Below, one piece after another: positions 14,344 through 53,686 of a stretch of 64,000 nucleotides of DNA (positions are counted from its first letter, which is position 1; every line of letters starts with the position of its first letter). Origin of the DNA: an uncultured Clostridia bacterium (GTDB taxonomy: Bacteria > Bacillota > Clostridia > Christensenellales > UBA1242); contig CALWPL010000005.1 in assembly GCA_944383405.1 (NCBI GenBank), forward strand, positions 7,482 to 71,481. Direction: 5' to 3'. The notes under the pieces were generated by a model, which saw nothing but the letters and a program-made list of their open reading frames with translations, did no database searches and was not told where the DNA came from. Position numbers and translations under genes: made by a program.

Positions 14344-16082
14344 TATTTGCTCCTCCTTTTGTTAGTTTGGCTTTCATATAGGTCTTTATATAATTCGCTT
14401 GATTTTAAAAGTTCACTATGAGTGCCCATATCTACTATTTTTCCTGATTCCATAATGAGTATTAAGTCCGCGTCTTGAATACTAGATACTCTTTGAGAAA
14501 TAATTATTTTAGTTGTTTTTGGGAGTTCTTCTCTAAAAGATTTTCTAATTAAAGTGTCTGTTTTTGTATCAACCGCACTTGTTGAATCGTCAAGAATTAA
14601 AATTTTTGGCTTTTTAAGTAGTGCTCTTGCAATACAAAGTCTTTGTTTTTGACCGCCGCTTACATTTGTACCCCCTTCTTCTATGTAGGTGTCATATTTG
14701 TCAGGCATCTTTTCAATAAATTCATCTGCGCATGCAACTTTACAAGCATGTTTTATCTCGTCCATTGTTGCATTTTTATTTCCCCATTTTAAATTCTCAG
14801 TAATTGTACCAGAAAAAAGAACATTTTTTTGAAGAACTACTGCAACACTATCTCTAAGGACTTCAAGGTCATACTCTTTGACATCTTTTCCGCCAACAAG
14901 TATTTTTCCACTTGTAGCGTCATAGAGCCTTGGAATAAGTGAAATAAGAGTTGTTTTTGAACTTCCTGTATTGCCAAGAATCCCTATAACTTGCCCAGAT
15001 TTGATATGTAAATTAATATCTTTTAAGCATAATTTTGAAATGTCTCCTGTATAACTAAATGACACATTTTCAAAGTCAACATCCCCATTTTTAACTTTCG
15101 TAATTGCGTTTTCAGGATTAGTAATTGAAGGTTTTTCTTCAAGTATTTCAATAATTCTTTCGGCTGATGGTCTAGCAATAGTTGTGCTTACTAAAATAAA
15201 AGATAGCATCATAAGAGACATTAATATTTGCATAATATATGAAAATAGGGTTGTTAATTCACCTGTTTCTAGTTGGCTACCTCCACTACTAACTATTATT
15301 TCAGCGCCAAACCAAGCAATAAAAATCATACAAGCATACATAACAAATTGCATAAGTGGGGAAGTGAGAGCGAGCATTTTTCTTGCCTTTGAATAATCTA
15401 CATAAATTTGATTACTGACCTTTTCAAATTTTTGAATTTCATAATCTTCTCTAACATAAGATTTGACAACTCGAGCGGCTCTTACATTTTCTTGAACTAC
15501 TTTATTTAAGTCGTCATATTCTTTTATTACTTTTTTAAATCTTGGATGAACATTTTTTAAAATAAAATATAAACCAATGGCAAGTATAGGGGCTGCAACT
15601 AAAAGAACTAAGGCAAGGGTAACATTGATTGTAAAAGTAAGCGACATTGCAAGTATTAGCATAATAGGTGCACGAATTGCTGTTCTAATAATCATTTGAT
15701 AAGCATTTTGAATAAAATTTACATCAGTTGTAAGTCTTGTTACAAGTCCAGCAGGCGAAAACTTATCTATATTAGAGAAAGAATAAGTCTGTATTTTGTC
15801 AAACATATCCTTTCTTAAATTTTTTGCAAATCCTGAACTTGCTTTTGCACAAAATGCCCCAGATAAAAAACCAAAAATTAGAGATAGAGAAGCCATTAAT
15901 GTAAGAATTAACCCAAGTTTTAAAATTGTTCCCATGCTTTCCCCATAAATACCTTTATCGATAAGGTCTGCCATAATGTATGGGATTAAGACTTCAAGCA
16001 CTACTTCAAGAAAAACAAAAAATGAAGTAAGTATGGAAGGAGTTTTGTATTCTCGTATTGATTTTGCTAATTTTTTTATCAT
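14343..16082 (-). CDS. Heterodimeric ABC exporter subunit (TMD+NBD, degenerate site)
   Basis: GNTGSSKTT, VSGGQKQR, ILDDSTS, ISQR (degenerate Walker B and H-loop as in TM287/EfrA type); TAATG coupling to partner. Confidence 0.93.
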   Translation of the reverse strand: MIKKLAKSIREYKTPSILTSFFVFLEVVLEVLIPYIMADLIDKGIYGESMGTILKLGLILTLMASLSLIFGFLSGAFCAKASSGFAKNLRKDMFDKIQTYSFSNIDKFSPAGLVTRLTTDVNFIQNAYQMIIRTAIRAPIMLILAMSLTFTINVTLALVLLVAAPILAIGLYFILKNVHPRFKKVIKEYDDLNKVVQENVRAARVVKSYVREDYEIQKFEKVSNQIYVDYSKARKMLALTSPLMQFVMYACMIFIAWFGAEIIVSSGGSQLETGELTTLFSYIMQILMSLMMLSFILVSTTIARPSAERIIEILEEKPSITNPENAITKVKNGDVDFENVSFSYTGDISKLCLKDINLHIKSGQVIGILGNTGSSKTTLISLIPRLYDATSGKILVGGKDVKEYDLEVLRDSVAVVLQKNVLFSGTITENLKWGNKNATMDEIKHACKVACADEFIEKMPDKYDTYIEEGGTNVSGGQKQRLCIARALLKKPKILILDDSTSAVDTKTDTLIRKSFREELPKTTKIIISQRVSSIQDADLILIMESGKIVDMGTHSELLKSSELYKDLYESQTNKRRSK

Positions 16083-16962: not shown

Positions 16963-19900
16963 ATGGATAACAATAAGGAGAATAATAAGCCAGAGTCTAA
17001 TTTTAAAGAGACATCTAGTCTTAATACTACTTCGCAAAATACTTCGTCAACACCTGGCGGAGATTCTTTTGCCGATAAAAGTAGTCAAGACAACTTTACG
17101 CAAAAACCATCTGGTAGTTTTCGTGGAGTTCCTCCTATAAAAGGTGCTCCACCAATAAAAACGGATGCAACAAAAGGCTTCCAAGGAGTTCCTCCAATTA
17201 AAACCAACAATGTAAATCCAAGTAGTGTTGGCGGAAATTTGCAAAATATTTCAGAACAAAATATTGAAAAAGAAAAACAAGCGGATGAAAAACTTGCTCA
17301 TTATGAACTAGCAAAAGAAAAAAAGCCACAATCTAAAAAAAGAAAAAACATTGCATTACTTATAGTCATTTTAGTATTTCTTGCTTGCGGTGGAATAGTG
17401 CTTGGAATTTTTCTTGCGCCAGATAGAGAATATACTGTTACTTTTGTTGATTGGCCAGTTGAGATACCAGAGAAAACTGTAACAGAAGGGGCTATATTTA
17501 CAGCACCAGTTCCACAAGATATATACAGTAATGACGGGGTTTTATTATTGCATTTTGAAGGCTGGACTTATAAAGATGGGAGAGATTATGTTCCTTCTGC
17601 TTTAAGAAGTAATATTACATTATACGCTAAGTATACGGCAACTGAGATTACAACAACTTTTGTTATCCCAAATGTTTATAGCCCTAATCTATCTCAATAC
17701 ATATATCTGACAGATGTAACAACAGAGTATTATTCTGAAACAATAGACATTTCAAGTTTATTGGGTGAACTTGAGAATTTTACTTCAGATAAATATGACA
17801 ATATTTCAAATGCGCTTGGGTTTAACATATCTACATCAGAAATAGTTGGGCAAATAAATGATGTAACAACTGCGTCTTTTTCACAATTTATAAAAAATTA
17901 CTATAATTATGCAACATTTACTATTCTAGGAGATGACCAAGTTTATTCAACGCAGGATGAGATTCCTACTCCAAGTGGAGATAGTATTGTTGTTATTGGA
18001 GTAGAGCCAAAACAGGTTGAAATACTTTTTAATTCTAATTTATTAAGCATAAAAGACGAATATGATTTTGCAAGTGGCGAATTTAATGAAGGAGATTTTG
18101 TTAACCAAGAAATATCTCATAAAATAAATTATGGGGCAGATTATACTTTTCAGAATTATATTGAAGTGGGTAGTTGGTATGTTCCTAAGAATCATGAGTT
18201 TTTAGGCTGGTCATTAGTGCCACCAACACTTGATGAAGAAGGCACAATTAATCCTGCTTTTGGGACAACAAATACATATATATCTTATGGAGAAATAAGA
18301 AATATTAATAGAACTTTTTTAAGTAATAATACAAAAATTACTCTTTATGCCGTTTGGGACCAATACATGACAGACCTTAGAATATATACGGATTACAGTT
18401 CAACAGGGGGGCTAGTTGAAACTGAGGTGTCTGTAGGTGTTTCAAGACCAGTCGGAGAATGGGCTCAAAACTACATGGAACTTATAGAAAAAGATGGATA
18501 CGCTTTAATTGGATTTAATACAGAGCCTGATTTAAGTGGGCTTACGCTAAGTTTAGATACTCCACTTGAAGGAGGAGTAGATTCTCCATATTACAATGCA
18601 GAACAAGGCTGCATTGTGCTTTATGCTGTTTATAGAAAAGAAGTTAATGAAACTTATATCGATATTAATGATGACGATTTAGATGTCGCAGAAATAGATT
18701 CTTCTTTACTTGAAGAGTTACTCAGTATTGACCTTAATATTGACGAAGGATATGTTTACGATAATATTGACAATATTGAAATTCTTTTTGATGAGGCACT
18801 TAGAAGGATTACGATTACTAATCTTTTGGCGGGTGCAAGTATTTTCTTGCCAAGTTTTGATAGAAATCATTATACATTAATAAATTATACTCTTGGTTAT
18901 GGGAGTCATAATTCAGGAAGTGAATACATAATTAACGAAACAGATATATCTTTTGATGCAAATATAGAATTAGATGCTGTTTGGGAAGGGGAAGATGTAA
19001 ATTTTGTTATTCATGGGTATATGGAAGGAGAGAATGAAGTTATAGAGTCTATAACTGTGCCTTATGGTTCATCAGTTGGACTTTCTTATAACAATGAGTT
19101 CGTGAATAATGAAACTCTATTACATGGCGAATTTTATAATAGAGCAACTTCTCAAATGATAGCAAGTATAAACTTTAATAGAGTAGGATACTTGTTCTTA
19201 TCATGGGTTGATAGTGAAGGGGTGGAAATTGATGATTCGACTTTGCAAGTTTTTACTATAAATAGCCTATTTAATGAAATTTATGCAAATTGGACTGAGT
19301 GTTTATATGATATTACATATGTTTTAAATGGTGGTTCTTATGAGAATAGAGATGATGGGGCTTCGTCAATGGATTCGTATGTTGAAGAAGATGTCCCTTA
19401 TGGAAGTGAAATTTCTTTAATTTCAAGTGATATTGAAAGAGTGGGTTATTATCTTGAAGGATGGGCAACAGATGGAAATGTCGATGCACAGGTAATTTAC
19501 GATTATGAGACTGAAAAAATTGTAGTTGAAAACGAACTTACTCTTTATGCTGTTTGGACAAAGGCGTATAGCATAACTTTGTATCTTGACGGAGAAAGAA
19601 ATGATGAAAGGGTGGTTTATGTTGATAGGGATAATACTTTTGTTTTAACTGGTAAAGAATTTGGCGATGAGTACAACTTTTCAAGATATAACGCATCTGA
19701 AAGTGGAGATGCTTATGAAATTGTAACAGGGGATAGCCGTCAAGAATATGTTTTCTCAGTTGATGTTCAACTTTATGCAATGTGGTTTGAAGTTTGCTTT
19801 GAAGAAGGCGATACAGATGGTATTTATCAGGTAGGAGGAAGTGCTCCAAGTAGTTTTTATGTTACAAATAAAACAAACTTTGCTTTGCCAAAAAATACAT

Positions 19901-46900: not shown

Positions 46901-49900
46901 TTATTGACAAAACAGATTCTGGAGTTAATCAAATAATTGGCAACTTCCAAATTGTTTCAAATGAGGCAACAAATGGTGGTGGTTTATATATAACAAACGG
47001 AGCGTTTACTATTTCTGGTGGAAATATTGGTGTTAAGGGCAAACCTAACAAAGCAGTAAATGGTGGTGGAATATACGCAAATGGTGGAAGACTTGAAATT
47101 GAAAATGGAAATATTTCATATAACGAAGCGACAAGCGCTGGTGGTGGAATGTATATTAATATGTGTGGTGTTATTAGCAAAGACGCTAATAATGAAGTCA
47201 GTGCATTGGTAGACTTTATTAGCGGGGATATTGCTTATAACAGAGCGGATTCTGGAACGGCGCCTGATTCTGTTGAGGCAAAGGCAAATGGTGGTGGTAT
47301 TTATCTTGCAGGAAATGAGTATACGAGTTCTGCCAGCGGTGTGTTAAATATTAATTCGCAGGCTGTAATATATGGAAATTATGCAGATGGCAATGGTGGT
47401 GGTATTTATAACAGTGGAAGAATTATTATGGAAGGTGGAAAAATTGGTAAGACTTCTAACAATGATAATGATAAGAACATAGCGATTGGAAGCGGTGGTG
47501 GGCTCTATGTTAATAATGGTTACCTTTATTTAGTTGGAACTGGAAAATCAAATGGAACTTCAATTATAAACAATCAAGCAACAAATGGCGGCGGTATTTA
47601 TATTGAAAATGTTGCAGATAGAGATGAAGGTGTCGCAGGCGAACCATCGGTAATTGCTAATGTTGTATTTACAGATAATAGTGCTGTAAATGGTGGTGCT
47701 TTATATTATGTAAGTGGAAATTTACTTTTCTATAATAATATTGTTCAAAAAAATACAGCCACTTCAACAAAAGTAACAACACCTGAAGGAGAACAAATAA
47801 CAGGTGGTGGTGGCGGTGGACTTTACTTATCTTCTCCAACTGGCAAAAATGTTTCAGAAGAAGTAAAAAATGCTAAGTTTACAATTGAAGGCGGAACATT
47901 TGGCGGAAGTGAAAGTAAATATGCAAATACTGCTCAAAATGGTGGAGCAATTTATGCAGAGACAGGAAACTTCACTATTAAAGGTGGAGAGATATCAGAG
48001 ATTCTTGACATTAATGAAGAGAAATTAACATTTGAAAGAACTGCTGCTAATTTACTAATTTCGTATAATGAAGCAACAAATGGTGGCGGAATTTATGTTG
48101 AAGGTGTAATTGACACAAATGCTTGTATTGTAGAAATAACTGGAACTTTGAGTGATTCTGGTAAGTATGGAGTTGTAATAACGAAGAATACGGCAAAGGA
48201 AAATGGTGGCGGAATTTATAATTTAAGTGGTATTGTTAATTTAGAAAAGGCACAAATTATAACTAATTCTGCTGGTGGAGATGGTGGTGGAATATATTCC
48301 GTATCAGGTGGAGACTCATCAAATTCTGAAAGTTTAGGTTTTAAACTCATTAGCGGTGAAATTTATAAAAATAAAGCGGCAAATGGTGGCGGTATAGCAA
48401 CTGGCGGAGTAAATCTTGATGGGGTTATTTATGCTGGAAGAACTCAGATACAAGCAAATATTTATGAAAATGAAGCACTACTTAAAAGTTCAACTTCATT
48501 AAATGATAGTACAGGTAATGGTGGTGGAGTATATGTTATGGGATCTCCTGATATATCTGGCAGTATGGTTACAATTACACCAAATGATGGAAGTATATCA
48601 GAAACTGGTACAAAGATTGAAGAAACTTCTATTCATGATAATAGTGCAACACGAGGTGGTGGTCTTTACATGGCGGGTGGTTATGTAACGCTTAATATGA
48701 ATATTTTAAATAATACTGCTGATCAAGGAAATGAAAGAGGCGGTGGAGGTGGAGCGTATATTATTGGTGGGACACTCAATCATGAAAGCAGTTCAATAAT
48801 GAATAATAAGGCAAGAAATGGTGGTGGAATTTATGTTAATGGTGGTACATATGCTTCTTCTACTCCAAATGGTTGTGTTCAATATAATGAAGCGTCAAAT
48901 AATGGTGGTGGTATTTACTTTGGTAGTGGCGAATTAGCATTTAATGGAACTGTTACTAGAAATGTGGCAAAAAATGGTGGTGGACTTTATATAGCAAGTT
49001 CTCAAAATGAATCAAATTTAAGAATTGGTGGAATGATAGGTGAAATTGCACCACTTACAAGAGATCCTTATCAAAATGGCAAAGAAGGATTTACTGGTAA
49101 TCGTGCACAAGAAAATGGTGGTGGTGTTTATATTGAAGGTGGAAATTATACGCTATCTGTTGATATAGTTGGGAATTCAGCATATAATGGTGGTGGACTT
49201 TATATAGAAGGTGGACAAATAACCTTTGGCAAGGAAGACAATACAAGTTTCACACCAGTTATTGCTAGAAATGCGGCTACCTTAAATGGTGGTGGAATAT
49301 ATGTGGGTGGTGGTGCATCTTTAGATATTATTAATGGAACAATTGTTGGAAGCGATAAACCAAGTAATGAATTTAATGAGTTTATTGTAAGTCTTGGATT
49401 AGCAAGTGAAAGCGGTTCTAGTGATGATGAAAGTTCTTCAACTGAAAATTCTGATGACTCAGAAAAACTAGGCTCTAATATTGCGACATTTGGTGGTGGA
49501 ATATATGTTGCTGGAATGGGAAAACTTGAAGATGATAATGATACTAGAACACAAGTTCAGATAATAGCAGCAAGTATTGGTTTTAACATTGCAACAAAGC
49601 AAGGAAGTAGTAAAGGCGGTTTAGGCGGTGGCTTGTATTCTGATAGTAAGAGTGGAGAAAGCGTTATTGGACTTAGTTTAAACACTACAGTTAATCGTAA
49701 CATTGCTGGGTCAATGGGTGGTGGCGCATATCTTGATGGAACATGGTTATATCTTTCAGATACTGCTAGTATTGTTGAAAATACATGTTGTGAAACTAAG
49801 AGTGGGGGAGGTCTAACTTATGTTCAAGGCTTGGCAGGATCACCTGATATTTCTGGTGTTAAACCTTATATTCATGAAGTTTACATGATAGATGGTGGTT

Positions 49901-50991
49901 TGGAATTACTTGATAGTTCTCAACTTGGTGTAAATCATAATATTATTGATAGAAATGTAGAAGGAAGTGTTGGAGAAAATAATGTTTATGCATTAAGCCT
50001 TTATTGGGATCTTGGAAGTGCAGATGTAGACTTTGACGCAGTTTTAGGAAATAAAATAATAACTAGTGAAGACGGAGGGCAAAGTGAAACAAGAGCGTCA
50101 TCAGGTATTGAAGGAGATGTTTTTGTTGATACATCAGGGACGGTTAAATTAAATACTCAAAAATTTTTAAATTCAAAACAGTTAACTATGGATTGGTTTA
50201 ATGGTTTACCTTATGAGTTCTTTAGTTTTTGGCAGAAATACCATGGGCGTCAAAATTTAGATGTTACATTTTTACCAATTCCTAATGCTAGTGGAAAACT
50301 TGAAAATGACGATACTATTTATTTAAATAACTCGTCAAATAGATTTAGTGCAGAAGATAATTTTTCTTATAATGTTACTAATTTACATTATGATTATGAA
50401 GTATTTGTAGGCAATAGTGTTACTTATACGCCTTATGGCTCAGATATGGCAAGTATGATGGAGCAAATTAATCAAGGTATAGCAGGAATTGCGGAATCTT
50501 TGGGGATGGATCCACAACAGATGATGGCTTTATTTGAAACTATTGTTGAAAGTAGTTCAGGAGCAGATATTGAAATAGGTAGTGGTTATTTAGATTCAGT
50601 AGTATCTGGCTTGGGTCTTGTGAAAGATGTTGTAGCAATAATACTTTATTTCTGTACTGGTAAAGTAGATATTGTAATGCTTAGTTATGTACTAGATATT
50701 GTTGATTTTATTAAAAGAGTTCCAGTAGTTGGTGGCTTAATTGGTGGTATCTTAGGCTTATTCATGGATTTACAATTTGCAATTCCTTTCCAAGGAGTTT
50801 CACTTTCAACATGGAAATCATGGAGAGATATTCATCATCTTAATAGTAAAGAAATTTTAACTACATTTACTAGTGCTTTAAGAAATGCTACTTCGTTTAT
50901 TACAAGTTTCTTTGGACCTCTTGTAGGACTAATTGCAAACTGGGGAATGGATATCATTTTGTCAGGATTTGAATATACTCTTCCAAGTTAA
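16963..50991 (+). CDS. Giant (11,342 aa) membrane-anchored surface protein: InlB-B/Listeria-Bacteroides repeats, Pmp-like beta-helix modules, BspA-type LRR, hydrophobic helical C-terminus
   Basis: Uninterrupted ORF with strong SD; TM at ~17350-17418 after KKPQSKKRK; recurring F.GW...LYA.W repeats; many N.A..GG(A/G)IY repeats; IG..AF..C LRRs at ~37540-38800; terminator downstream. Confidence 0.92.
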   Translation: MDNNKENNKPESNFKETSSLNTTSQNTSSTPGGDSFADKSSQDNFTQKPSGSFRGVPPIKGAPPIKTDATKGFQGVPPIKTNNVNPSSVGGNLQNISEQNIEKEKQADEKLAHYELAKEKKPQSKKRKNIALLIVILVFLACGGIVLGIFLAPDREYTVTFVDWPVEIPEKTVTEGAIFTAPVPQDIYSNDGVLLLHFEGWTYKDGRDYVPSALRSNITLYAKYTATEITTTFVIPNVYSPNLSQYIYLTDVTTEYYSETIDISSLLGELENFTSDKYDNISNALGFNISTSEIVGQINDVTTASFSQFIKNYYNYATFTILGDDQVYSTQDEIPTPSGDSIVVIGVEPKQVEILFNSNLLSIKDEYDFASGEFNEGDFVNQEISHKINYGADYTFQNYIEVGSWYVPKNHEFLGWSLVPPTLDEEGTINPAFGTTNTYISYGEIRNINRTFLSNNTKITLYAVWDQYMTDLRIYTDYSSTGGLVETEVSVGVSRPVGEWAQNYMELIEKDGYALIGFNTEPDLSGLTLSLDTPLEGGVDSPYYNAEQGCIVLYAVYRKEVNETYIDINDDDLDVAEIDSSLLEELLSIDLNIDEGYVYDNIDNIEILFDEALRRITITNLLAGASIFLPSFDRNHYTLINYTLGYGSHNSGSEYIINETDISFDANIELDAVWEGEDVNFVIHGYMEGENEVIESITVPYGSSVGLSYNNEFVNNETLLHGEFYNRATSQMIASINFNRVGYLFLSWVDSEGVEIDDSTLQVFTINSLFNEIYANWTECLYDITYVLNGGSYENRDDGASSMDSYVEEDVPYGSEISLISSDIERVGYYLEGWATDGNVDAQVIYDYETEKIVVENELTLYAVWTKAYSITLYLDGERNDERVVYVDRDNTFVLTGKEFGDEYNFSRYNASESGDAYEIVTGDSRQEYVFSVDVQLYAMWFEVCFEEGDTDGIYQVGGSAPSSFYVTNKTNFALPKNTFEAHKYYKFNGWDRNGETYTTSYRVDEESQISQLVFDATWGYKDVRVELYFDDVVTGAYASGMAVNNQFVITKANGRYPQQIGREIDYIFDYDSARYINAETENNEIILDIPNPNDNMIEVEGQDYYIYRLYTKWKLNVTFISTEGTTPASASWHLGSTYTGDNSLDVPLEDISSEYSLVMPNGEDDLGFYVDRRTFSHWNNEVLGDSQVGDTVVLTDDITFNAVWEGTKYSIRVIDEENVNSTKVVENIEYGETYSIAELIGLDQETFRSKYEDTVANYYKQIANIYYYYRIGEQIYQREFELDDSLVFATVEGGEIGGFIAEDDITDDDTTHKTPDEIILNIRWEEVVYDVRINLNGGNWDALSGENYFDYGAELYRDENNEYYFVYKVRYSVIRDGGNGLNIAYLGLNRSGYRLDGFSVNEDENISIVDGRGYVYTFSGTAGEYDELYGQETISQIDASWQEILTIGFNTNGGTSTEEISNLIVDVVYDEVVGVDIAKFNIPEIDLRRENCTLVGFYYTNNSDELKAKSTYTFSDRYILNNDFLFSVGEEVIITREIIDTYGSTTNSSLTMYAIWKTNIVFNNTLVNEEVAGYYTPNSPEMIESSENTFTIEFYCGIELSLTELNGYYFDLKNTDVYSPNGWRYGSQDINQLVVDGGIQLDSIWLENSVRIYMKNYNGSDFGSNPIYFESSNGEQVDLNSEYKTLMQSSIMPSLYGYNFIGWSTSVDGNLISINDESVIVYDSENLYTVPNVVSTVYAVYERCEVRVVYDKNSSDAVGEEVTVSGLEFGNTYLLRTDIDYTLTYFNLDGFATTSDAVVPISDSNIIFDNSLTYETRNEEGVIVYTLRLYAVWSRQTKEVRINLQGGSFYNSGVEENLEAFFDPTKDNRIQSYVLNSTNIVLRVFIGLGDEFGFNLPSEEYLAREGFVFDYYTLGEGTLEYEGGQFIRCDNTQPYVFDIHWLEIITIQIYSNMSEDDENYISFDVVYEDLITFDPANKTIYNYSAENEEDAEIVLDFSRNHYYIEAFTSNESGGAEYVYGTNYNVNDGAFIILDSAIKIYCQWKGVDISLTFDANDNAQDPENSTITQIENAFSYGETIKLSDFFSVSERVDGDIGYEFSHLVDEFGNEYQLDANADFNPETSNLEFRTNYTFNAVWAPREYSVIYNFGSGYYITEEGSREKTVTLIYKYGDKVDLLEVTNENSIHEEDSYEGRTYPLYEFDSFTSEDVEVLDGTFTMPNFNIEFMASWVSKDISIIIDSTGGIIGDVVGEPSYSGEIGDNPNGYNLSFEGVNNTNLVVSNLKVGDVVELETLPSPYNLGFSYSYNYLVNYTGEGEFDATVNGFQTFGASDEFELNTDRINSSTLNLNELWNEERQAFVLYFTVVWSTNSYIVSYSMTKPLIENGYSVNASSNITNVDSISQAMVYGEESTLAGPMTLNGWTQTGWSLEVNLNNQTDENTFLFSDGVAETPQIYNFITEDSIVTLYPIWEQNEYDIIISDNLNTDNIIGPSGASSSITVKFTYDESSTIQELLDRNQITINSYTFKDVYLRYAGFKYEGQTLGVMEFNTDDELVFCLAPQGFIDGEDFSANSIELQIVWEEVAFGIHFNLLGGKSEYNSSGLLSNFDNETGYYTLEGEVLYSDLKQGFYIDEYFDAQEDAISFDDEDISYTLAGWSLNNYDMYCLKGELFSLDLGTNEQIESILAPNEDGEFDYIFEFYAIYNDRLVIIDANGGSVNLNIGSEITASDGQVWIADEYEIYTYSYSDAEIVISTNLYDPFVLSNYHIDLDIEDETHTVNRTSDESNILYAPWVGNRRYVVVDSRMNNTLQVGSGFKSTIITDNNVYYGYVEISSEEASTQSDVYVYSYNSSTDVGEFIPYDAGGTYSEDTHFYQKVNNRALLIETRFGEEIDDLSLITIDGITSNFSGWGDDFGVYSDEGTLLLVQGQNDEIIYLYAHIDEVIVTYNLNGGLYNNLDNIEITDGNDADGDDILDPYGIARPKNDDGRYYVYLPGKRVNGYDRGPLKWGYTFLGWSNTYIDYNAYIEAVEKGETTAESLIVPSDENNVRNIYYLQGVQNETLYAIWEPITTTFTFISKSSANDPDAESGPNSINVVVTAQYGDTILFPVKGDGSENGTIIDNWTNSDQNMVFTGWRIDFPNGESQSRTLSQGQEYVLTQERDFSPYGSAPTEITVYSIWKRANVTVKLYVGQGSTRDYAYFGPESQEGFETDNYGVYMKTISTLGGTYVIPELDDFYLKNMYASGVYFDNTYGYPVVADYIVIRQDDVVDGVLSLYIKWDNAQSFIRNFYGNYNKYFGSLETALLAAARISTSEDLDRYEQRIKDKGSVEVVIINTANRFNLSQEVVIGENFNFAVSLDEESVSVSKTIQRSSSYQGVIFSVGLGSSLSFNALNSYKLYLDGGNISAQSFIKANGATININSGVDISNMFNNGSLIEENKTAGAIWVQNGRVNVTGSIISDNRIVTNGTHNVYGAFLYANNSNVYINACQFENNTIQGAGSLFGGAVAVENGGEIVITNTNFLNNKAQSTGVNGTTGGYGGAVYVGGGQNLTLNSTFDYTFSTNWADFGGAIAVVGSQSKQSQVSLVYPYANYNYAIKGGAFYFEYADIIVETISLLGNGSTAPTESITSSNQEISEYGGGIYAGQKTNLVLTIELDDITEDNEISDSFGFSDIMNNRGRLGGVIYTEGLSLIVHAYSFTGNGTNIADIEEMGGVIYAKGFADSEGNINDINKVEIYVSDFSLNNADYGGVMYVGDGASIKLTTLESLIEEIEKKIAEGETISTDVYDSVSGNMEYNSALKGGAIYFDSTTTDSLIEYTAIDFNMKNTDGESSDYGGGIYIANGQVTLGERGIIYKNSAIYGAGAYVGAEEVSGLEEGQENPVAKLIVDGGAFVYELIQYPSSLVTEYNNYVAKIEELEKQLEEDPDNAELQKELEDAIAHREDVMQQILDFEIVSQDGNYGYNGGAVYVGKYGYVDFASGRIAGTQMFGEQLGEFVYNEGTVRYGYVNSEQNVVNGVGYQIYNTGSFDIYGTGEMVSRPRVYIDKTEDGEAYDYLLVSNLNYNISNTIEIVLPTDSYIHDIPIVKFASQEAYDNYLTLMETREAPLFELSDSTITLDTDDDQLALVLHFKSYEIRFRDISNDNITVPNPLTFTYKEINKDTIIDEINAYTVIRDGYRFAGWAFYVETTPEGPSTSRNSIAIEYKGTDNFEISTVINQEVAGQTFYSIDKLPELIPEVLPAHNVYLYAVWEPKPYTIKYKYDTNYGGYTNVEEYTINGHPVTDENLLGLSQLAYYTNSVILRNVADINKVELVAYEPLTTVVRDSSGVPTSVTTERLNTTYTNIAYEEGTGRYYYTANDTYKYYIESDTSSFRVLNVDENGFIYESNEPSEQIYPKQVIVGGVTYDVENNNGQRIVLINGTTYSLRSAYRPDNYEVSHIEINGSNYYDLGDAFQILNSNPFAICFEEPYEIYFTIYFKRMSVDINFVVDSEDETGENNFTIERYVGAEITLPTGSIVRYDDIEHLIYKEGSVLKGFVDETGKEYSLGERYIVSETTTGAHTLTAVWESAVCYVEGVVRTDTGVVNKYYSSLEDAINDINLDNFDVGKSEYSLWIIDTNGTPNTEEIIITLNETLVINSNITISTQGDSAVRFVYSEEFNSSNPMIRVESKILTIGSNNGPQIIFDGTRNASLSSIFIVDVSGQINIGNRAVITQGKISTTSSASTLGGAMTIYGIVNINGCSEDTIMFTNNQSVNGGAIYIANGGLLTVKAQKESGSLFAKNNAILGGAIYVAKGGNLDIVSNAQSSLIISDNSAKDGGAIYLELGVGSVILENVTFSGNIATNGGAIYAVGDFMIKSGLTFISNSAETSGGAIYTDANLSVSGGTFSSNSANMGGAIYSGSYIYVSGGTFDANDVSAGYGGAIYAVGELSIDGEVVISNNKGNFGGAICVDSCVAVISGSVIISNNIALRGGAIYVRNESSLSITDNAEISNNTANSQGSSAESGTTIITGGGAVYLDSSRLYLNGYLTNNTSVNGGAIYAAGASSIILDGVSEITNNTARENGGAIFITGSSSLQIQAEDVLISENSAGVFGGGIYYSSSVNSVLEYGLVADNSINSNSNMTSYNGTEIYLANSATDTSTNSLSITLSGVIIGNYDSSLVENTYAVYVGTRSILYVTDTSEINGEVYTKGLDKNRASMGIVLSGSAFVRDIFLNQYAYAVVEGTLTSTRLTTNGKKINLHFSYYNEDDPNKTPNDTKMVRFNNIDSLNLNKDYFNLVKDIAELTDYCLQITTESSFAWLVIMEIAQVIYINPNGGTIEFEGVTVSGDTSLEIVNLPQRGSLAFLDEIVGHKIGYAMLDTFVDRDSNVIYTSDSELPIYVLTLLVQWTSKDYDVKFIRNGDNGTTTEQTSLKYEAYTRLGTASLTYNTFAGWELAYMENDELVYTGIIFNANTNFSLMSINDENLVSSVTGETGSQIFEKIDGGDNTVYLVSSFTPIEVEILVHGNGGVAIDSTVDSRYEKIQIDEDTWMYTCAQSELYVDYNDFVEDFEYQDHAVDGLFTGTDGVYDEGFDVMYDEINSSINISNVTRLELYCHWKNVVAYIRKDATNEDNERRIYFDDLVEAVNALVTGDDLVIVASNIYLTNTLNFDVDVDVYVRGNVTIHRQNGFYDFLITISSDVNILPENDESSLTIDGNGSAGVATNGSIRVASSGNLVLESGITIQNAFSKENGAGIFADGSLVINGAVIQNNRTMSNGGGIYATGGLQINEGTIISNNTADGFGGGIYIGSGLFNIVKSTISENNAKYGGGVYYASNLAGEISGGQIINNSTSNGEQYFGGGIYIALNSGALVLSEGVAITGNTSGYGGGVFIVGNNDGNSDYNLLIENAVISGNTAVYGGGIGIGDTAYNYNKHVIRMLDGMITNNTATYGGGVSIFRGTFELRGGSISSNIATSGSNMFISSVSSNFYGVASIIGGVIGNATEDSGDIYVNAKNSTIGGKLQLSGFYEIYSHVKVANGAKINVVGVISSDTPSIIIEPVATSSMGEISNYPTGNNLLVVVNFENLIAVQQDKFDLIEDVKNQGVNSYRLKTIEQDIVITSALFTLTIDPMDGVLSSDGEIEYTTDNDLWLTEVYYTSSVYEALSHVTASIENRYFMGFYTYVDEEKVYIDEDFTMPYDDLTVYVEWSNDYYVLTINFNDTRSLSGTQARFNIAGADLTAGEIYDEENRQISLEVFVDGDGTSYGAQAINRIAGLLTRNNYTILGFSPSQLVDGNNEIYGQDGNEFLMPEGDITLYVLWLGNPYTVTYNSNRPSRQNAEQIQIEYTFDELINVGDEDTFDTPGYNLIGWSLSSNSQEVEYEVGESTYNLIDDNNQGISLYAVWEAIEYVVHYDSNMQGRVVEGEIEDDIFVYGVEKSLSSKSFTTIGYTQVGWSLDPNCDSDSTDNYYSFEDNLIAINLTTEDEVTIYAVWAQNTYYVNLHESGVEGSLIVSTVSVLYDSQDTSLPLATQVFGNSNSYYFAGWSLTPYADSDDAQIDFEDGQVLYNLVESGEIDLYPVWIARKVIIYANNNTEDAVTINAQTNGNIVISKEELSSLVTYPGFEIGDLSTNAQVALGTRYNFDNYGVITISAEANQENEIILYIAWRARQYTFNFVVDNEQYDALSSQIKSAKVSGGNAYTNFTDDNRIYAYDDILEGVEFYGWSVDSECSTLDFELGSYNELTSDVFEKFMMYQDVTSSTLTLYAVLSQTYQITYNLNNNSHNVIFGSTTNITGENSVTTDVIDINTPVQLAFSDYQGNVWEIADIDSSNPSSLYAYFLGWAFDSNAEIPDFVEGQEVGLQFSGNITLYAVWGYYTNPFYFEYVSQGEGVAISGLSQLGLTNLSESAHVVFPRHTLKVSNNTYSMGEQIVGIMSSTQEINNITSVDLAYMDNLQTISEFAFANYSNLTSISSVPQQAEIGGGAFSGVSIESVEFESGEQDRYLLDEKGNIYLVSGMSASLHTILVKNSSESIVIGENVQLGSASYAVSEILSYALYNTTFNNVEVTEDVSKISENALGGVNGLSNLVVPFIGTQNDVTSSQTLATMIGDDLIQSLRVVTVTNQTVVLVGAFSGQEYIEEVYYTSGITLINNDAFNGCVSLSMLKGVGEEDFDMSLCTQIGSRAFYGCTSLPTSINFTVTTSIGNEAFSNTNITKVSLSREIESLGTSENREMYTAFKNATNLTEAYVYSTYAFEAVINNTNIKGGDEVNGTIYTDVNFYLVLNNLTDNLLKEKYFSYNIVVYDRVEVFEGNQSVGVYNTLEEAVINAQAGQRILIKADTQITQQIAIDKDISIYAGFSVVDEDDDAYEYAQNREDVYVSVSDALKNTPVFIISSSNVNFGGSFIGDMYSENYLDGNLNIFANNSRSASMIVSTNSNITFGEKMRIYDFKTSSDAQVNGSVAQLLGNTTLTSIGANIRDNSATNGGVFYVDDSELIINSGIINNNSAVNGGVAYVTKQGRVYIEQTNQVSITDNSASMYGGVLYVDTTILDENYAVHIGSSTISNNSANQGGAIYILDGIVSVNSEDANIISNSAATHGGGVYVRGGILSVRSGNIGSVDGANKAVSGGGVYVGLQGIIRLLGQNASISYNTATNGANIYFASQIDTNGLISELSAGIISYGNNGQDVQNKFGGGIYQESGILYLKDSIIISNNSAEYGGGIYLANGVLSIKNTASNSEEASGFGVLQNQASVGGGLYLANGEATISGSDIRQNTASENGGGIYINGGNLRIENTRTCLSNVSENTSQNGAGIYIDKKGAVTISSSNISSNTASMSQEGNDGNGGGIYLQSGSLTLRTAQITNNVAGQNGGGLYIPNAQTNISFTMYEDTTISQNSAVNGGGIYVDRALDISQGLISANTATLGGQIFVGKNAVLTLDKVEITTQNNDIENYTLGVYLEQGGVANAFSITNYTNIHRADTYVYLSQGSIVYVIDRFTADYQVKLYIEEAVAGKKVKVAQFARNDYASAGKFYARYTAFTKETNSIYAVEATVIASLNKEITGNDESEVNYATLKEAVELCQNNSYLRLIGNQEITSTLAVSVPEGKTVTIITDGEQIITRGTEVNGSVYNGYLITVFGTLLLNDEESDNNLLVIDGKKAQNSSSLIYVGDSGRLNIYNNVEIKNNDASLRIYDLTRPNTNKKISISDAYNGGAIYLGGGSIVMHGGSIYNNSARNGGAIYVSSGSLDIRGGSIGFETESGILGNTALQNGGGIFVESGAVILGESQIIGNSAVNGGGVYVYRQGTLEIERTTISSNTATNSGGGLYLASTRSGESYFMTGGEISRNSAVNGGGLYISGGTIIMETDASQISNLFDLNSASKNGGAIYVADTGLINMSGGVLTNNTASENGGGIYYSSNNVNLSSGITDSSIGLQNHGNSAVNGGGIYITSGNIVITGLDFSSNEFSSVISGNTASQNGGGVYVGGTGAVSLIRTGISNNNAVNGAGIYITSTRNIELEGSLVSANSSSGNGGGIYQENGNLIITTTADEQLDGIEGNTSQTNGAGLYIVGGFTRIDSTLIQNNNSITGTGAGIYVGGGEVEITTSNISNNTISGEQKDGQGIYYNAGNLTLLGENIIQNPTSQEARSGSILIQGETSLEESFTISGSISYIYDAIYLKDKGSWINSYEGDESEVASNMAFSQGSNPDATILIKVDSAKDVGDKVAKFSASSILRNDLISMFELDMNSQRMLVQGTGDNADFIILQSQFFQLVVGKEGEVGEIVGVFTSLTELVENLHLYSDRVSERGYLVFVNFNSSEDSYVVNSTVNSNVYEEYLSGFSKKITITPRAENQIFTREDGASDIAIFNVFEGDEVYLGFNSQFNDFYEQFKVNKDTSKLIFEGSENSASSIITNFGKLTLGKGVEVRNEFITSEEGAVNSYGELVVDGAVLHNNEGINGGAIYVADGTFNMLSGEIYANYAINGGAIYISTNVEATISGGTIGRQNEEGSRDELRNIAINGGAIYVAGGLLNITGGDISFNYASEMGGAIYITPSMTVTGSVSGRVVISSSTLPQEMTYISNNEAGENGGAIYVEDNFIDQNVSFADRLKTLTINGGIIDNNTAMFGGGIYATNVRIEDNEKFYTGATEFVDSGVSSYVYGVSIEINGGTIDRNFVEFDAQMQDIGLGGGIFIYGGEMQMNGGIISGSANSYIALNGGGIYLKDSVVTINDGIIRNNEVGNNGGGIYVDKTSTFTLNGTSSTLISNNYAYANGGGIYQEKGKTNLATGVDTYEEVTVSGKVILIGGTITGNIVETGGKGPGAYVNTEAHDFVLGAGIVNGEVSLLSENLVINDILYLANDSLIYVNAKYNPAYNTLDRKIPVACDYTSDTYTKLDGERVIIARYTSAIDEADSVSIEAKLFTGKDNAQQDYCFIIYNGYDVVIGRMNVAKYIEGQSVSFFETLEDALESVKNNLNTTIYILVDEQQQAFRLTMEKKVTLTGEKHIRVTSGKYDKETDTLTEYGVNERYLSVYIGNYGGGDIITLQMDTGSQLMFDNIRIVGNDDAENKAINLFRVNSGNLTLKNVIVEKNVSKSDGTLINVSGGSAHLIGDIVSRDGTQVEGMLVSQGAAQLGIINVSKGELLLSGEGVLITQNTVEAGTIYVTDGTITIENGANIMGNIARSNGGGVYLTGKNSNLIVDGANISSNSALNGGGLYIEDGAIEFSGANITDNEATNGGGIYIDIEFEMDLGYDSNSYISRNIAESYGGGIYATADLTIGRGVIVSENEAYYGGGVSVRDGDLLVTGGAQISSNIAISSGAGVYSTSGNITIEEATISNNSMPVDSTEMLGGGIYIAGTDSKLTILGLANIIGNSAIYGGGIYVGPGVIFEMSQGNIGGNSALENGGGIYFIGKSFTMTGGSIAGMAQSDSEAISGNSALNGGGIYLAGGVFDMSNGNIGAQGYGNTATNGAGIYVNGAQITLEGNGVIEGNIADGGNGGGVFIDKTDSGVNQIIGNFQIVSNEATNGGGLYITNGAFTISGGNIGVKGKPNKAVNGGGIYANGGRLEIENGNISYNEATSAGGGMYINMCGVISKDANNEVSALVDFISGDIAYNRADSGTAPDSVEAKANGGGIYLAGNEYTSSASGVLNINSQAVIYGNYADGNGGGIYNSGRIIMEGGKIGKTSNNDNDKNIAIGSGGGLYVNNGYLYLVGTGKSNGTSIINNQATNGGGIYIENVADRDEGVAGEPSVIANVVFTDNSAVNGGALYYVSGNLLFYNNIVQKNTATSTKVTTPEGEQITGGGGGGLYLSSPTGKNVSEEVKNAKFTIEGGTFGGSESKYANTAQNGGAIYAETGNFTIKGGEISEILDINEEKLTFERTAANLLISYNEATNGGGIYVEGVIDTNACIVEITGTLSDSGKYGVVITKNTAKENGGGIYNLSGIVNLEKAQIITNSAGGDGGGIYSVSGGDSSNSESLGFKLISGEIYKNKAANGGGIATGGVNLDGVIYAGRTQIQANIYENEALLKSSTSLNDSTGNGGGVYVMGSPDISGSMVTITPNDGSISETGTKIEETSIHDNSATRGGGLYMAGGYVTLNMNILNNTADQGNERGGGGGAYIIGGTLNHESSSIMNNKARNGGGIYVNGGTYASSTPNGCVQYNEASNNGGGIYFGSGELAFNGTVTRNVAKNGGGLYIASSQNESNLRIGGMIGEIAPLTRDPYQNGKEGFTGNRAQENGGGVYIEGGNYTLSVDIVGNSAYNGGGLYIEGGQITFGKEDNTSFTPVIARNAATLNGGGIYVGGGASLDIINGTIVGSDKPSNEFNEFIVSLGLASESGSSDDESSSTENSDDSEKLGSNIATFGGGIYVAGMGKLEDDNDTRTQVQIIAASIGFNIATKQGSSKGGLGGGLYSDSKSGESVIGLSLNTTVNRNIAGSMGGGAYLDGTWLYLSDTASIVENTCCETKSGGGLTYVQGLAGSPDISGVKPYIHEVYMIDGGLELLDSSQLGVNHNIIDRNVEGSVGENNVYALSLYWDLGSADVDFDAVLGNKIITSEDGGQSETRASSGIEGDVFVDTSGTVKLNTQKFLNSKQLTMDWFNGLPYEFFSFWQKYHGRQNLDVTFLPIPNASGKLENDDTIYLNNSSNRFSAEDNFSYNVTNLHYDYEVFVGNSVTYTPYGSDMASMMEQINQGIAGIAESLGMDPQQMMALFETIVESSSGADIEIGSGYLDSVVSGLGLVKDVVAIILYFCTGKVDIVMLSYVLDIVDFIKRVPVVGGLIGGILGLFMDLQFAIPFQGVSLSTWKSWRDIHHLNSKEILTTFTSALRNATSFITSFFGPLVGLIANWGMDIILSGFEYTLPS
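39412..42230 (+). repeat. Dispersed identical coding repeat AATAGTGCAGTAAATGGTGG (NSAVNGG)
   Basis: Identical 20-mers at 39412, 40582, 41767 and 42211 within beta-helix modules. Confidence 0.8.
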
Positions 50992-51033
50992 ACAGATTTA
51001 TATAAATTTACAAATCTAGTTAATAATTCAATT

Positions 51034-51072
51034 AAAAAAGGATGGTGTGTAAATTATACATTATCCTTTTTT
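51034..51072 (+). terminator. Intrinsic terminator after giant gene
   Basis: AAAAAAGGATGGTGTGTA-AAT-TATACATTATCCTTTTTT with G-U pairs. Confidence 0.8.
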
Positions 51073-51112
51073 ATTTATAATAAAATTATCATTTTTAGAA
51101 TTTGCAATTTTA

Positions 51113-51142
51113 TTGACAAAAATTTAATATAAATGATATTAT
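51113..51142 (+). promoter_or_regulatory. sigmaA-type promoter of Fe-ADH gene
   Basis: TTGACA-18 bp-TATTAT with extended -10 TG. Confidence 0.55.
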
Positions 51143-51178
51143 TTATTTGTTTGTTAAATGGGAGTTAGGAAAAATATA

Positions 51179-52378
51179 ATGAATATATTTAAAAAACTTT
51201 ATTGTAGAATTTATCAGGGGATATTTAGATTAATTCTACCTATTTTACCATATAGAGAGCCAAAAATTCTTAAAAGTAATAATGATATTTCGACCTTACT
51301 TAAAGAAAAGAAAATAGATAATGTTATGCTTGTTACAGATAAAACTTTGAAGTCAATAGGTCTTACAAAAAGTTTAGAAGAGAATTTAACTCTTTCTAAT
51401 ATCAAAGTGGTAGTTTTTAGTGATGTAGTTGCAAATCCTACAACTCAGAATGTAGAAGATGGGTTAAAATTATATAAAAAGCAATTATGTAATGGGCTTA
51501 TTGCTTTTGGTGGTGGCTCTAGCATGGATTGTGCAAAAGCAATAGGGGCAAGAATTGTCAAGCCAAAAAAGTCGTTAAGTAAAATGAAAGGACTTCTTAA
51601 AATTTGCAAAAAGTTACCTTTACTTATTGCTATTCCAACGACTGCTGGTACTGGCAGCGAAACTACTCTTGCGGCAGTTATTACTGATAGTGTAACAAGA
51701 CATAAATATGCTATTAATGATTTTTCATTAATACCACATTTTGCTATGCTTGATGCAACTTTAACAATTAATCTTCCTAAATTTGTTACTGCGACAACAG
51801 GAATGGATGCTTTAACACACGCTATTGAATCTTACATTGGGAGAAGCACTACGAAAGATACAAGGAAAAACGCACTTGAAGCAACAAAATTAATATTTGA
51901 AAATTTGTATGAAGCATATTTGCATGGAGAAAACTTAAAGGCTAGGCAAAATATGTTACTTGCATCATACAAAGCGGGGCTTGCTTTTACAAAATCTTAT
52001 GTGGGGTATGTGCATGCTATTGCTCATTCACTTGGTGGGAAGTATAATGTTGCCCACGGGCTAGCAAATGCAGTTATTTTACCGATAATGTTAAAAAAAT
52101 ATAATAAAGCAGTTTATAAAAAACTATATAAAATGGCATTATATGTAGGGCTTATTGATGAAAAAGTGGGAGTTGAAGAAGGCGCCCTTTTATTTATAGA
52201 AAAAATCGAAGAATTAAACAAAAAAATGAATATAGGAAATACTATAAAAGAATTAAAAAAAGAGGATATTGAGAACTTGGCTAGAACGGCAGAAAAAGAG
52301 GGAAACCCATTATATCCTGTGCCGGTATTATATACAGCAAAGGAGTTAGAAGATGTTTATTATAAATTGTTAGTATAA
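51179..52378 (+). CDS. Iron-containing alcohol dehydrogenase
   Basis: AFGGGSSMDCAK, IPTTAGTGSE, GMDALTHAIE, VHAIAHSLGG, HGLANA; start 51158 or 51179. Confidence 0.93.
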   Translation: MNIFKKLYCRIYQGIFRLILPILPYREPKILKSNNDISTLLKEKKIDNVMLVTDKTLKSIGLTKSLEENLTLSNIKVVVFSDVVANPTTQNVEDGLKLYKKQLCNGLIAFGGGSSMDCAKAIGARIVKPKKSLSKMKGLLKICKKLPLLIAIPTTAGTGSETTLAAVITDSVTRHKYAINDFSLIPHFAMLDATLTINLPKFVTATTGMDALTHAIESYIGRSTTKDTRKNALEATKLIFENLYEAYLHGENLKARQNMLLASYKAGLAFTKSYVGYVHAIAHSLGGKYNVAHGLANAVILPIMLKKYNKAVYKKLYKMALYVGLIDEKVGVEEGALLFIEKIEELNKKMNIGNTIKELKKEDIENLARTAEKEGNPLYPVPVLYTAKELEDVYYKLLV

Positions 52379-52681: not shown

Positions 52682-53686
52682 ATGGATTGGCAAGGTGTTT
52701 GGAATGATATTGTTAATTTTTTTAGTAATAATATTTGGAATATAGTAATATTTTTTGCGACCTTATTTTTAGGAATTATAATTATAAAAATAATAATTAA
52801 TATTACAAAAAGAATTTTAAGAAGGACTAAAATTGAAAAAATAGCACAGCAATTTTTAATTGGTATAATTAAAGTTGCTTTATATTTAGTACTTGTTTTA
52901 TTGCTATTAAGTCAAATAGGAGTTCAGATTACTGGGATTTTAACAACTGTTAGTGCACTTGTTCTTGCTGTTGGAGTGGCCCTTGAAGGTAACATAGCAA
53001 ATCTTGCAAATGGCATTGTGATTATATCAACTCATATGTTTAAAAAAGGCGATTATATTATGGTAGATGGAGTTGAAGGAAGTATTACAAATATTAATTT
53101 TTTATTTACAACTCTTATAACTTCTGATAACAAAAAAATAACACTTCCTAATTCAACTATTGTAAATAACAATGTTACAAATCTTGGAGCAAATCCTAGA
53201 AGAAGGGTTGACTTTATCTTTTCTTGTGCTTATGAGAGTGATGTTGAAAAGGTAAAATCCATTATTATAGATGTAATGAAAAGTGATGGTAGAGTATACC
53301 TTGATCCAGAACCTTTTTGTAGGTTAAAGGTATTAAATGTAAGTAGTCTTGATTTTAGTGCTAATTGCTGGTGCGATAGTGATGATTATTGGGATGTTTA
53401 TTATTATGTAGTGGAAAATGTCTATAATGAATTTAAACGAAACAATATTTCAATTCCATATAATCAACTAGAAATTAGGGAAAGAAAAGATGAAGTCATA
53501 ATGCCTGTTATAGGAACAAAGTTGCCTGAAAGAGTTGAAAAAGTAAGAATTAAAGAGCATGAAAAATTTGACCTTGAGGATGCTGATTTTACAAAAATTT
53601 TTAAACATAAAAAAAATGATAAGGAACAAGATAAAAAGAATATACTTTCAAGGAAAAAGAAACGCAAAAAAGAACAAGAAGTTTAG
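52682..53686 (+). CDS. mscS: Small-conductance mechanosensitive channel (MscS family)
   Basis: Three N-terminal TMs, FKKGDYIMVDGVEGSI, ITLPNS, ISIPYNQ; TTGACA-17-TAAACT promoter at 52630. Confidence 0.9.
   Translation: MDWQGVWNDIVNFFSNNIWNIVIFFATLFLGIIIIKIIINITKRILRRTKIEKIAQQFLIGIIKVALYLVLVLLLLSQIGVQITGILTTVSALVLAVGVALEGNIANLANGIVIISTHMFKKGDYIMVDGVEGSITNINFLFTTLITSDNKKITLPNSTIVNNNVTNLGANPRRRVDFIFSCAYESDVEKVKSIIIDVMKSDGRVYLDPEPFCRLKVLNVSSLDFSANCWCDSDDYWDVYYYVVENVYNEFKRNNISIPYNQLEIRERKDEVIMPVIGTKLPERVEKVRIKEHEKFDLEDADFTKIFKHKKNDKEQDKKNILSRKKKRKKEQEV

Follow-up and report, generated by a model that had tools for sequence, protein, structure and literature searches.

What stands at the far end of a giant bacterial surface protein? 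The question is raised by the window analysed here, a 64,000-nucleotide stretch of contig CALWPL010000005.1 from an uncultured Clostridia bacterium of the Christensenellales family UBA1242. An uninterrupted open reading frame of 11,342 codons plus stop (positions 16963–50991, forward strand) encodes 11,342 residues without an internal stop, and the last 183 of these, here termed the H tip, differ in character from the acidic repeat body that precedes them. A first-pass annotation of the window had seen in this tail a pore, translocon or docking device that a cell-tethered stalk inserts into the membrane of another cell; its most consequential claim, that of a new cell-tethered pore or translocon, is unsupported. 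The reading that we favour, and to which we would give an even chance, is that the tail is the exposed distal binding or recognition head of a genus-specific giant adhesin-like fibre. Coordinates are window positions, on the forward strand unless stated otherwise, residue numbers are those of the giant protein, and G000 denotes the genome of the window.

A tethered fibre with a helical end-domain

The protein begins with a basic, Pro/Lys-rich cytoplasmic segment (residues 1–131; 16963–17355; isoelectric point (pI) 9.43) that finishes in KKPQSKKRK, just before a hydrophobic helix at residues 132–150 (17356–17412). With a Kyte–Doolittle 19-residue mean of 3.07, an insertion free energy (ΔG) of about −4.5 kcal/mol on the Hessa scale and an Eisenberg <H> of 0.99, this helix makes the N-terminal anchor claimed by the first-pass annotation a real one. 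Because the basic flank lies N-terminal of the helix, the positive-inside rule places the bulk of the protein outside. As a signal anchor, this one helix would hold the giant fibre in the membrane of the producer. The cytoplasmic part also carries three GVPPIK/GAPPIK repeats (residues ~50–80; window 17110–17200), with four GVPPI[KH] repeats at the same place in the relative G005, which may be a docking motif for a cytoplasmic partner.

The extracellular body (residues 151–11079; 17413–50199) is strongly acidic: over residues 151–11080 the pI is 4.10, with 13.1% D+E, 4.9% K+R and a grand average of hydropathy (GRAVY) of −0.19. Pfam, searched over residues 1–10000 at E ≤ 0.001 and over residues 10544–11342 at E ≤ 0.1, recognizes Flg_new (Listeria–Bacteroides) repeats, Chlam_PMP repeats, BspA-type LRR_5 leucine-rich repeats and right-handed Beta_helix repeats. 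A pre-tip module (residues 11080–11159; 50200–50439) opens with NGLPYEFFSFWQKYH and closes with VFVGNSVTYTP. The tail proper (residues 11160–11342; 50440–50988) has a net charge of −10, a GRAVY of +0.63 and, from low-confidence models, about eight predicted helices. When the whole protein is ranked by 19-residue windows, three of the top ten for hydrophobicity fall within its last 130 residues, and the change of character is therefore not a matter of chance. On this point the first-pass annotation was correct, and the four strings that it quoted all lie within the last 183 residues. It described the tail as Met/Gly/Leu-rich; the most abundant residues are I, L, G, S and V, Met stands out only in the first two helices, and the helices themselves are predicted only. 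The last 183 residues would form a secreted, acidic, amphipathic α-helical end-domain at the far end of the fibre. A signal-anchor helix, a very long adhesin-type repeat body and a distinct terminal domain together make the protein giant-adhesin-like, a term that names a kind of protein and not a homologous family.

The conserved core of the tail

Profiles were built stepwise from three alignments, A1, A2 and A3, the last comprising 14 tails of 150–226 residues. The only invariant column in it is Trp 11284, which in the window protein sits in the motif S-T-W-K-S-W-R-D (S-x-W-K-x-x-R-D) within the family signature VSLSTWKSWRDIHH (residues 11279–11292; 50797–50838); the pattern around it across the family is [ST]-x-x-x-W-[KR]-x-x-x-[RD]. 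The last two helices (residues 11309–11333; 50887–50961) are the only moderately hydrophobic part to persist in all 14 tails, with mean Kyte–Doolittle values of 0.53–1.58 and 0–10 charged residues.

The most hydrophobic stretch of the window tail (50599–50772), in which 19-residue means reach 2.01, is poorly conserved or missing in the homologues. Its first segment (residues 11213–11233) bears one to six charges in the homologues. The second (11234–11250) is all gap in five of the 13 homologues and reduced to four residues in two more, and the third (11253–11270), which has GxxxG spacing, is all gap in three, reduced to three residues in two and cut down to nine polar residues in five. Tail GRAVY ranges from −0.02 to +0.63 across the 14 sequences, with the window protein at the top, and charged residues make up 13–25% of the homologous tails. 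On this alignment, the conserved core is the charged Trp motif together with two terminal amphipathic helices, and the very hydrophobic middle helices of the window tail are a lineage-specific extreme.

The tail has also been maintained. Whole-length alignment with the 11.5–11.8k-residue frames of G005, G026 and G013 gave 46, 37 and 35% identity over 92–96% of the length, which identifies these frames as colinear orthologues and not shuffled repeats. The last 240 residues are the least conserved block in these comparisons (30, 27 and 21% identity), and relative to the adjacent 450–900 residues upstream the tail shows lower identity in seven of nine close pairs and higher identity in two; it is constrained and evolves only mildly faster than the stalk. 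Contigs from four other metagenome runs span positions 49500–51200, mostly at 95% identity or more, without insertions or deletions in the coding part. Twelve codons of the tail vary among them, joint changes within one codon being counted together; nine leave the residue unaltered and three bring in the conservative substitutions T>S, I>F and I>V, although at low depth single differences may be errors. In natural populations, then, the reading frame of the tail is preserved and its sequence is subject to purifying selection.

Distribution of the tail family

The first-pass annotation had suggested looking for the tip on other giant proteins, and a profile search found it there. The tail occurs once in G000 and in 14 of the 28 genomes of the genus, always once per genome, and in 13 of these 14 it closes a frame of 10.9–11.8k residues; the remaining copy, in G012, is a fragment at a contig start. 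Outside the genus the profile had no match. Within the family it was positive in 14 of 401 genomes, representing 1 of 58 genera, and the 373 genomes from the 57 remaining genera were negative; within the order it was positive in 3 of 401 genomes, representing 1 of 173 genera, and the 398 genomes from the 172 remaining genera were negative. A single-sequence search of 1.84 billion representatives returned one match, a 255-residue fragment, and a single-tail search of genome contigs found no relative. Nor did word-index searches give a match, whether the alignment was compared with longer proteins, the alignment with proteins of similar length, or the tail as part of a 10,000-residue query; these three are weak negatives. 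The giant body is somewhat more widespread: residues 151–1000 match 25 of the 28 genus genomes, usually as two frames of 10.7–11.8k residues per genome. In a sample of 151 family genomes six matched, five of them from this genus, and the sixth, a weak partial match, was the only one among the 146 sampled genomes of 57 other genera. Judged by these searches, both the helical tails and the giant paralogues are confined to one genus among the genomes searched.

A sister fibre with a different tail

Some of the giant frames end in a second type of tip. Seventeen giant-frame places were fetched, of which 16 reach a stop codon; seven end in the helical tail and nine in a quite different one. A second paralogue of ~11k residues is present in nine genomes, G000 included, each with one fibre of either tail type. 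The ten paralogue tails examined are polar (GRAVY −0.54 to −1.04), with 11–21% Trp+Tyr+Phe and two to six Cys. A pre-tip motif, N-x-[LY]-P-x-x-[FY]-[LF]-x-x-[YW], precedes both kinds of tail and, as defined from alignments that leave out the G012 fragment, is common to the ten aromatic-tail paralogues and the 13 helical-tail homologues whose sequence extends far enough upstream. The shared motif ahead of the two could be taken for a polymorphic-toxin layout, but each tail type stays with its own paralogue. The two sister fibres would present two different distal heads, the second with a specificity different from that of the first, and the H tip would attach to a partner cell, a host surface or a particle.

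An assembly break divides the G000 paralogue (L128) between two contigs, G000:C9:19071–42554 (+) and G000:C13:2–9799 (−), with 7,828 codons on the first and 3,266 on the second. Its tail is polar and Trp/Tyr/Cys-rich, and the open reading frame that follows resembles RecR by eye. Over the match to residues 151–1000 it is 44% identical to the window protein, against 40% for the syntenic G026 orthologue. This closer resemblance may be a trace of gene conversion or of a less simple history of paralogy.

Two sequence features stand beside these tails. Several aromatic tails (alignment A4; L111, L115, L123, L124 and L128) contain [ST]-[ILM]-[AS]-x-W, for example ...TIAKW... or ...SISNW..., which is like the invariant Trp motif of the helical family, and both kinds of tail may have inherited a small core from a common ancestor. 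A subgroup of the helical-tail proteins (L116, L117, L118, L125 and L126, from G021:C6, G006:C7, G010:C2, G019:C24 and G008:C12) has several CxxCxGxG repeats ahead of the pre-tip motif. These resemble the DnaJ zinc-finger, with a match to Pfam PF00684 (E 0.0027, 18.4 bits) that is below the cut-off, and are odd for an extracellular region.

Searches for anchors, toxins and translocators

The first-pass annotation had noted the lack of an LPxTG motif, an SLH domain or a basic stop-transfer tail, and this was upheld: there is no LPxTG anywhere in the 11,342 residues, K and R never stand four or more in a row within the last 400, and the last 799 have no Pfam match to SLH. Sortase (PF04203) has no match in the 98%-complete G000, with the control positive in three genomes, so a sortase-anchored wall protein was not found here. 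The same genome supplies positive controls for C-terminal anchoring, as its 9,198-, 2,856- and 2,188-residue proteins end in at least 20 uncharged residues followed by an R/K cluster (Eisenberg <H> 0.84–1.17); the tail of the window protein lacks this pattern. The far end of the giant protein is neither a sortase signal nor a stop-transfer anchor. A WxL-type or SLH wall-binding domain was considered for the tail and rejected for lack of a Pfam match.

The tail likewise fails to resemble real membrane helices. Its best windows have ΔG values of +4.4, +4.6 and +5.4 kcal/mol, against −4.5 for the N-terminal helix, and are no better than ordinary β-strand windows of the body (+4.55 to +5.6). No tail window of the window protein reaches ΔG ≤ 0 on the Hessa scale. 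Two uncharged runs of 16–17 residues are present, one of them with the GxxxG spacing; when His, Asn and Gln are disallowed along with charged residues, the longest uninterrupted run is 17 residues.

Family searches were equally negative. Pfam gave no family for the window tail at E ≤ 0.1 or at E ≤ 10, and Pfam, NCBIfam and PHROGs gave nothing significant for the tail or any family member; single-member matches to Delta_lysin (E 0.0098) and to tape-measure families (E ≥ 0.055) were at chance level. Pfam searches with eight family members touched seven families, none of them colicin. Against the PDB, the best match was at E 0.028 by sequence, with no pore-former listed, and at E 0.073 by profile, below significance, with soluble helical bundles and coiled coils and no pore-former among the 29 matches listed. 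An ESM Atlas search with the tail gave a best score of 0.84, at which recognition is under a useful level. Across Pfam, NCBIfam, PHROGs and the PDB, no toxin, translocator or anchor family matched the tail. The view that the tail belongs to no described family therefore held in all five resources, and no published description of the giant protein or its tail was found in a limited literature search. By these searches, the helical and aromatic tails are two new orphan domain families for which a profile now exists.

Gene neighbourhood

The giant gene is followed by a terminator-like hairpin at 51033–51073 with a T-rich tail to 51083 (one found against 0.0 expected from shuffles), and then by a gene for an Fe-dependent alcohol dehydrogenase (Fe-ADH; 51158–52378, +; assigned by Pfam) with its own promoter-like site (51113–51142; 11 of 12 matches). 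A terminator-like site and the unrelated dehydrogenase gene, both described by the first-pass annotation, are in place, and the Fe-ADH gene is no part of the giant-fibre system. It adjoins the giant gene in G000, G005 and G026; among the best 80 dehydrogenase loci elsewhere, the tail lies upstream in only two (L036 and L042), which appear to duplicate two tails already in the alignment set. Other downstream neighbours, named by eye, are a leucyl-tRNA-synthetase-like frame in G013, a small helix-turn-helix-like open reading frame and then a DegV-like one in G014, and a DegV-like one in G022. No adjacent immunity gene was found: the terminator-like site and Fe-ADH follow in the window, and housekeeping-like neighbours follow in the homologues.

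Further out in the window, an MscS-type mechanosensitive channel gene (52682–53686, +) lies downstream of the dehydrogenase gene, and two adjacent ABC exporter half-transporter genes (12436–16082, −) precede the giant gene. The latter were considered as a dedicated exporter of the fibre and set aside as an ordinary half-transporter pair on the other strand.

Host genome and lifestyle

G000 is a genome of 1.33 Mb in 20 contigs, 98% complete, with frames longer than 5,000 codons of 11,359, 9,198, 7,828 plus 3,266 (one gene, on contigs C9 and C13), 7,698 and 5,647 codons. These five giant frames sum to ~45,000 codons or ~135 kb, ~10% of the genome. The frame of 9,198 codons combines a signal peptide with a membrane anchor of the classic kind at the C terminus, and those of 7,698 and 5,647 codons open with signal peptides that by eye look lipoprotein-like. 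G000 encodes four Mur ligases and ATPase A/B-type subunits; ketoacyl synthase (PF00109) has no match in this 98%-complete genome, with the control positive in 14 of 14 genomes. This gene content fits a cell that has a wall but does not synthesize its own fatty acids, and because it has no ketoacyl synthase its fatty acids or lipids must come from outside. The nearest public records that bear the dehydrogenase are from uncultured Clostridia and Christensenellales, including Candidatus Onthoplasma and Candidatus Caccovivens, and the sequencing runs that contain the stretch are labelled chicken or bird gut metagenomes, with no RNA run among those listed. For related reduced-genome Christensenellales (family UBA1242, including Onthoplasma), a published account describes missing biosynthetic pathways and proposes a symbiont or parasite lifestyle (PMC12306168).

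Alternative readings of the tip

Several observations weigh against a binding head. GRAVY is above zero in 11 of the 14 tails, which is unusually hydrophobic for a secreted soluble domain, and nine of the 14 contain a 19-residue window at or above 1.60, the classical Kyte–Doolittle membrane threshold. The best 21-residue Eisenberg <H> of the window tail, 0.72, is just above the membrane-helix cut-off of 0.68. A ΔG of 0 is reached by only one of the 13 homologous tails scored (G013:C3, −0.04). The modelling and structural comparison proposed by the first-pass annotation did predict helices, about eight of them after a small β module, but the AlphaFold2 models, from 8 and then 14 sequences, are unreliable (predicted local distance difference test (pLDDT) scores of 45 and 46). 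Foldseek with the second model gave no PDB match at E ≤ 0.001 and a best TM-score of 0.19, which is meaningless at a pLDDT of 46. Rapid 'recognition-type' evolution is weak evidence for the binding head, because the tail is just modestly more divergent than the adjacent body. Finally, dependence on external fatty acids would leave a motive for lipid contact by the tip.

A rival reading, which widens the idea of the first-pass annotation, is a membrane-active tip. Its amphipathic, hydrophobic helices would attach to the lipid membrane of another cell or enter it, and would serve as a pore, as a means of fusion or docking, or as a contact through which lipid is harvested. In its favour are the GRAVY of the window tail, its uncharged runs and GxxxG, windows of up to 2.01, the moderately hydrophobic character of the last two helices in every tail, the position at the far end of a tethered fibre, the missing ketoacyl synthase and the partner-dependent life proposed for related reduced-genome Christensenellales (PMC12306168). 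We nevertheless consider it unlikely, as most homologues have gaps or charges across the hydrophobic hairpin region, the core that never varies is polar, ΔG is +4.4 or worse in 12 of the 13 tails scored, no pore-former or translocator family matches, and there is one tail per fibre with no pointer to oligomers. A pore, translocon or membrane-inserting hairpin thus finds no support: the hydrophobic segments are unconserved in the 13 homologues, the invariant residue sits in a charged motif and no window comes near true membrane helices. From this we infer that the H tip is neither a translocon-inserted anchor nor a conserved pore-forming hairpin. As the tail is not an ordinary transmembrane anchor and matches no known soluble domain, membrane contact is unsupported and not refuted. 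In a more specific form, which we regard as quite improbable, the H tip would be the lipid- or membrane-engaging head of a fatty-acid-auxotrophic cell, docking a fibre of perhaps 0.2 µm on the membrane of a partner bacterium or host while the sister Trp/Tyr/Cys-rich tip grips wall or glycans, so that the two make a two-handed device for taking lipids or metabolites. If true, the window lineage would have pushed this head furthest towards membrane affinity.

Alternatively, the tail could be structural, a helical domain that caps the C-terminal end of the β-helix or bundles fibre ends without any foreign ligand. It directly follows the conserved pre-tip β module and β-helix repeats, a bundle could bury its hydrophobic helices, bundles and coiled coils are what the weak PDB profile matches show, and its divergence is close to that of the body. 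However, the sister paralogue ends the same kind of β-helix with a wholly different polar aromatic tail, so the fold can do without a helical cap; moreover, 150–226 residues are large for a cap, and the conserved charged Trp motif is more like an interaction site than a core. We therefore rate a structural end-piece as doubtful. Re-entry of the tail into the producer's own membrane, with the fibre held at both ends, is very improbable: the window protein only just exceeds the classical hydropathy thresholds, but its ΔG of +4.4 compares with −4.5 for the real anchor, it lacks a basic stop-transfer tail, the real C-terminal anchors of the genome look quite different and the homologous tails are rich in charge. 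The layout of one pre-tip motif before two unrelated tail types brings to mind CdiA and Rhs proteins, whose toxin tips also follow a motif. In a toxin reading, the motif would show where an exchangeable toxic tip, destined for neighbouring cells, begins. To this we give almost no chance, since no small gene follows the window gene and neighbours are housekeeping-like across genomes, no toxin family matches, each tail-bearing genome has exactly one H tail, nine genomes hold one tail of each type, and tails diverge roughly in step with bodies and are not shuffled. Because there is no sign of a toxin, the missing immunity gene is uninformative, and its use by the first-pass annotation as a pointer to a non-kin target carries no weight.

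Comparison with known systems

The nearest parallel to the window fibre is the set of giant proteins Giant1–5 of Apilactobacillus kunkeei. These proteins of 3,000–8,000 residues occupy 6% of a 1.5-Mb genome and combine a β-solenoid with a long rod and with terminal domains of unknown function, and the extended length of Giant3 is estimated at ~0.2 µm (PMC12863079). As here (1.33 Mb), a small genome spends several per cent of its length on a few giant surface proteins. The polarity is reversed: the Giant proteins have a cleaved signal peptide, an N-terminal β-solenoid, no membrane helix and C-terminal domains that are SH3b-like, carry positive charge and are proposed to bind the wall (PMC12863079), whereas the window protein has an N-terminal membrane anchor, an acidic β-helix/leucine-rich-repeat body and a free acidic helical C terminus. 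DUF5776 is not among the Pfam matches of the window protein.

Type I-secreted diderm adhesins (SiiE, the 1.5-MDa Marinomonas adhesin and FrhA) share the long stalk tethered near one end, the distal ligand-binding modules and the reach-and-stick logic. Giant adhesins of this class are exported through the outer membrane and have Ca-binding repeats, a C-terminal secretion signal and recognizable binding domains, which Pfam did not detect in the window protein; in particular, no family with repeats-in-toxin (RTX) features (Ca-binding nonapeptide repeats or a type I secretion signal) was found in residues 1–10000 at E ≤ 0.001 or 10544–11342 at E ≤ 0.1. C-terminally anchored giants, of which staphylococcal Ebh is an example, are represented in G000 by the 9,198-, 2,856- and 2,188-residue frames. 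Like the window protein they are very long and are displayed on the surface of a walled cell that has no sortase or does not depend on one for this, but they combine an N-terminal signal peptide with at least 20 uncharged C-terminal residues and a basic cluster, and the window protein is anchored N-terminally. Chlamydial Pmp proteins share GGxI[YF]-type β-helix repeats with the body (PF02415; 24 and 35.9 bits against a cut-off of 20.6). They are autotransporters with a C-terminal outer-membrane β-barrel, and no barrel is present in the window protein; the similarity, seen in the repeats, concerns the stalk and not the tip.

Colicin-type pore domains and YopB/IpaB translocators have hydrophobic, Gly-rich helices and are able to exist outside the membrane. 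The tail is like them in being a helical domain with such helices, but it has no sequence or profile match to this class, no conserved uncharged hairpin of ~35–40 residues and no immunity gene, and its conserved core is a charged Trp motif. A conserved buried hydrophobic hairpin like that of colicins is absent, with a longest uncharged run of 17 residues and segments gapped or charged in homologues; features of the YopB/IpaB class are also absent, with no Pfam or NCBIfam match and no tail window at ΔG ≤ 0. Of the marks of a polymorphic toxin, neither a known toxin domain nor a linked immunity gene was found.

Implications

The giant-adhesin kind of protein is known; what is new is the pair of alternative orphan tips that stand behind a shared motif on paralogues of ~11,000 residues in one genus. 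The tips of such giant fibres are obvious candidate contact surfaces for organisms that are unable to make fatty acids and whose relatives have been proposed to be partner-dependent (PMC12306168). The ligands of these tips would tell how such reduced gut bacteria live.

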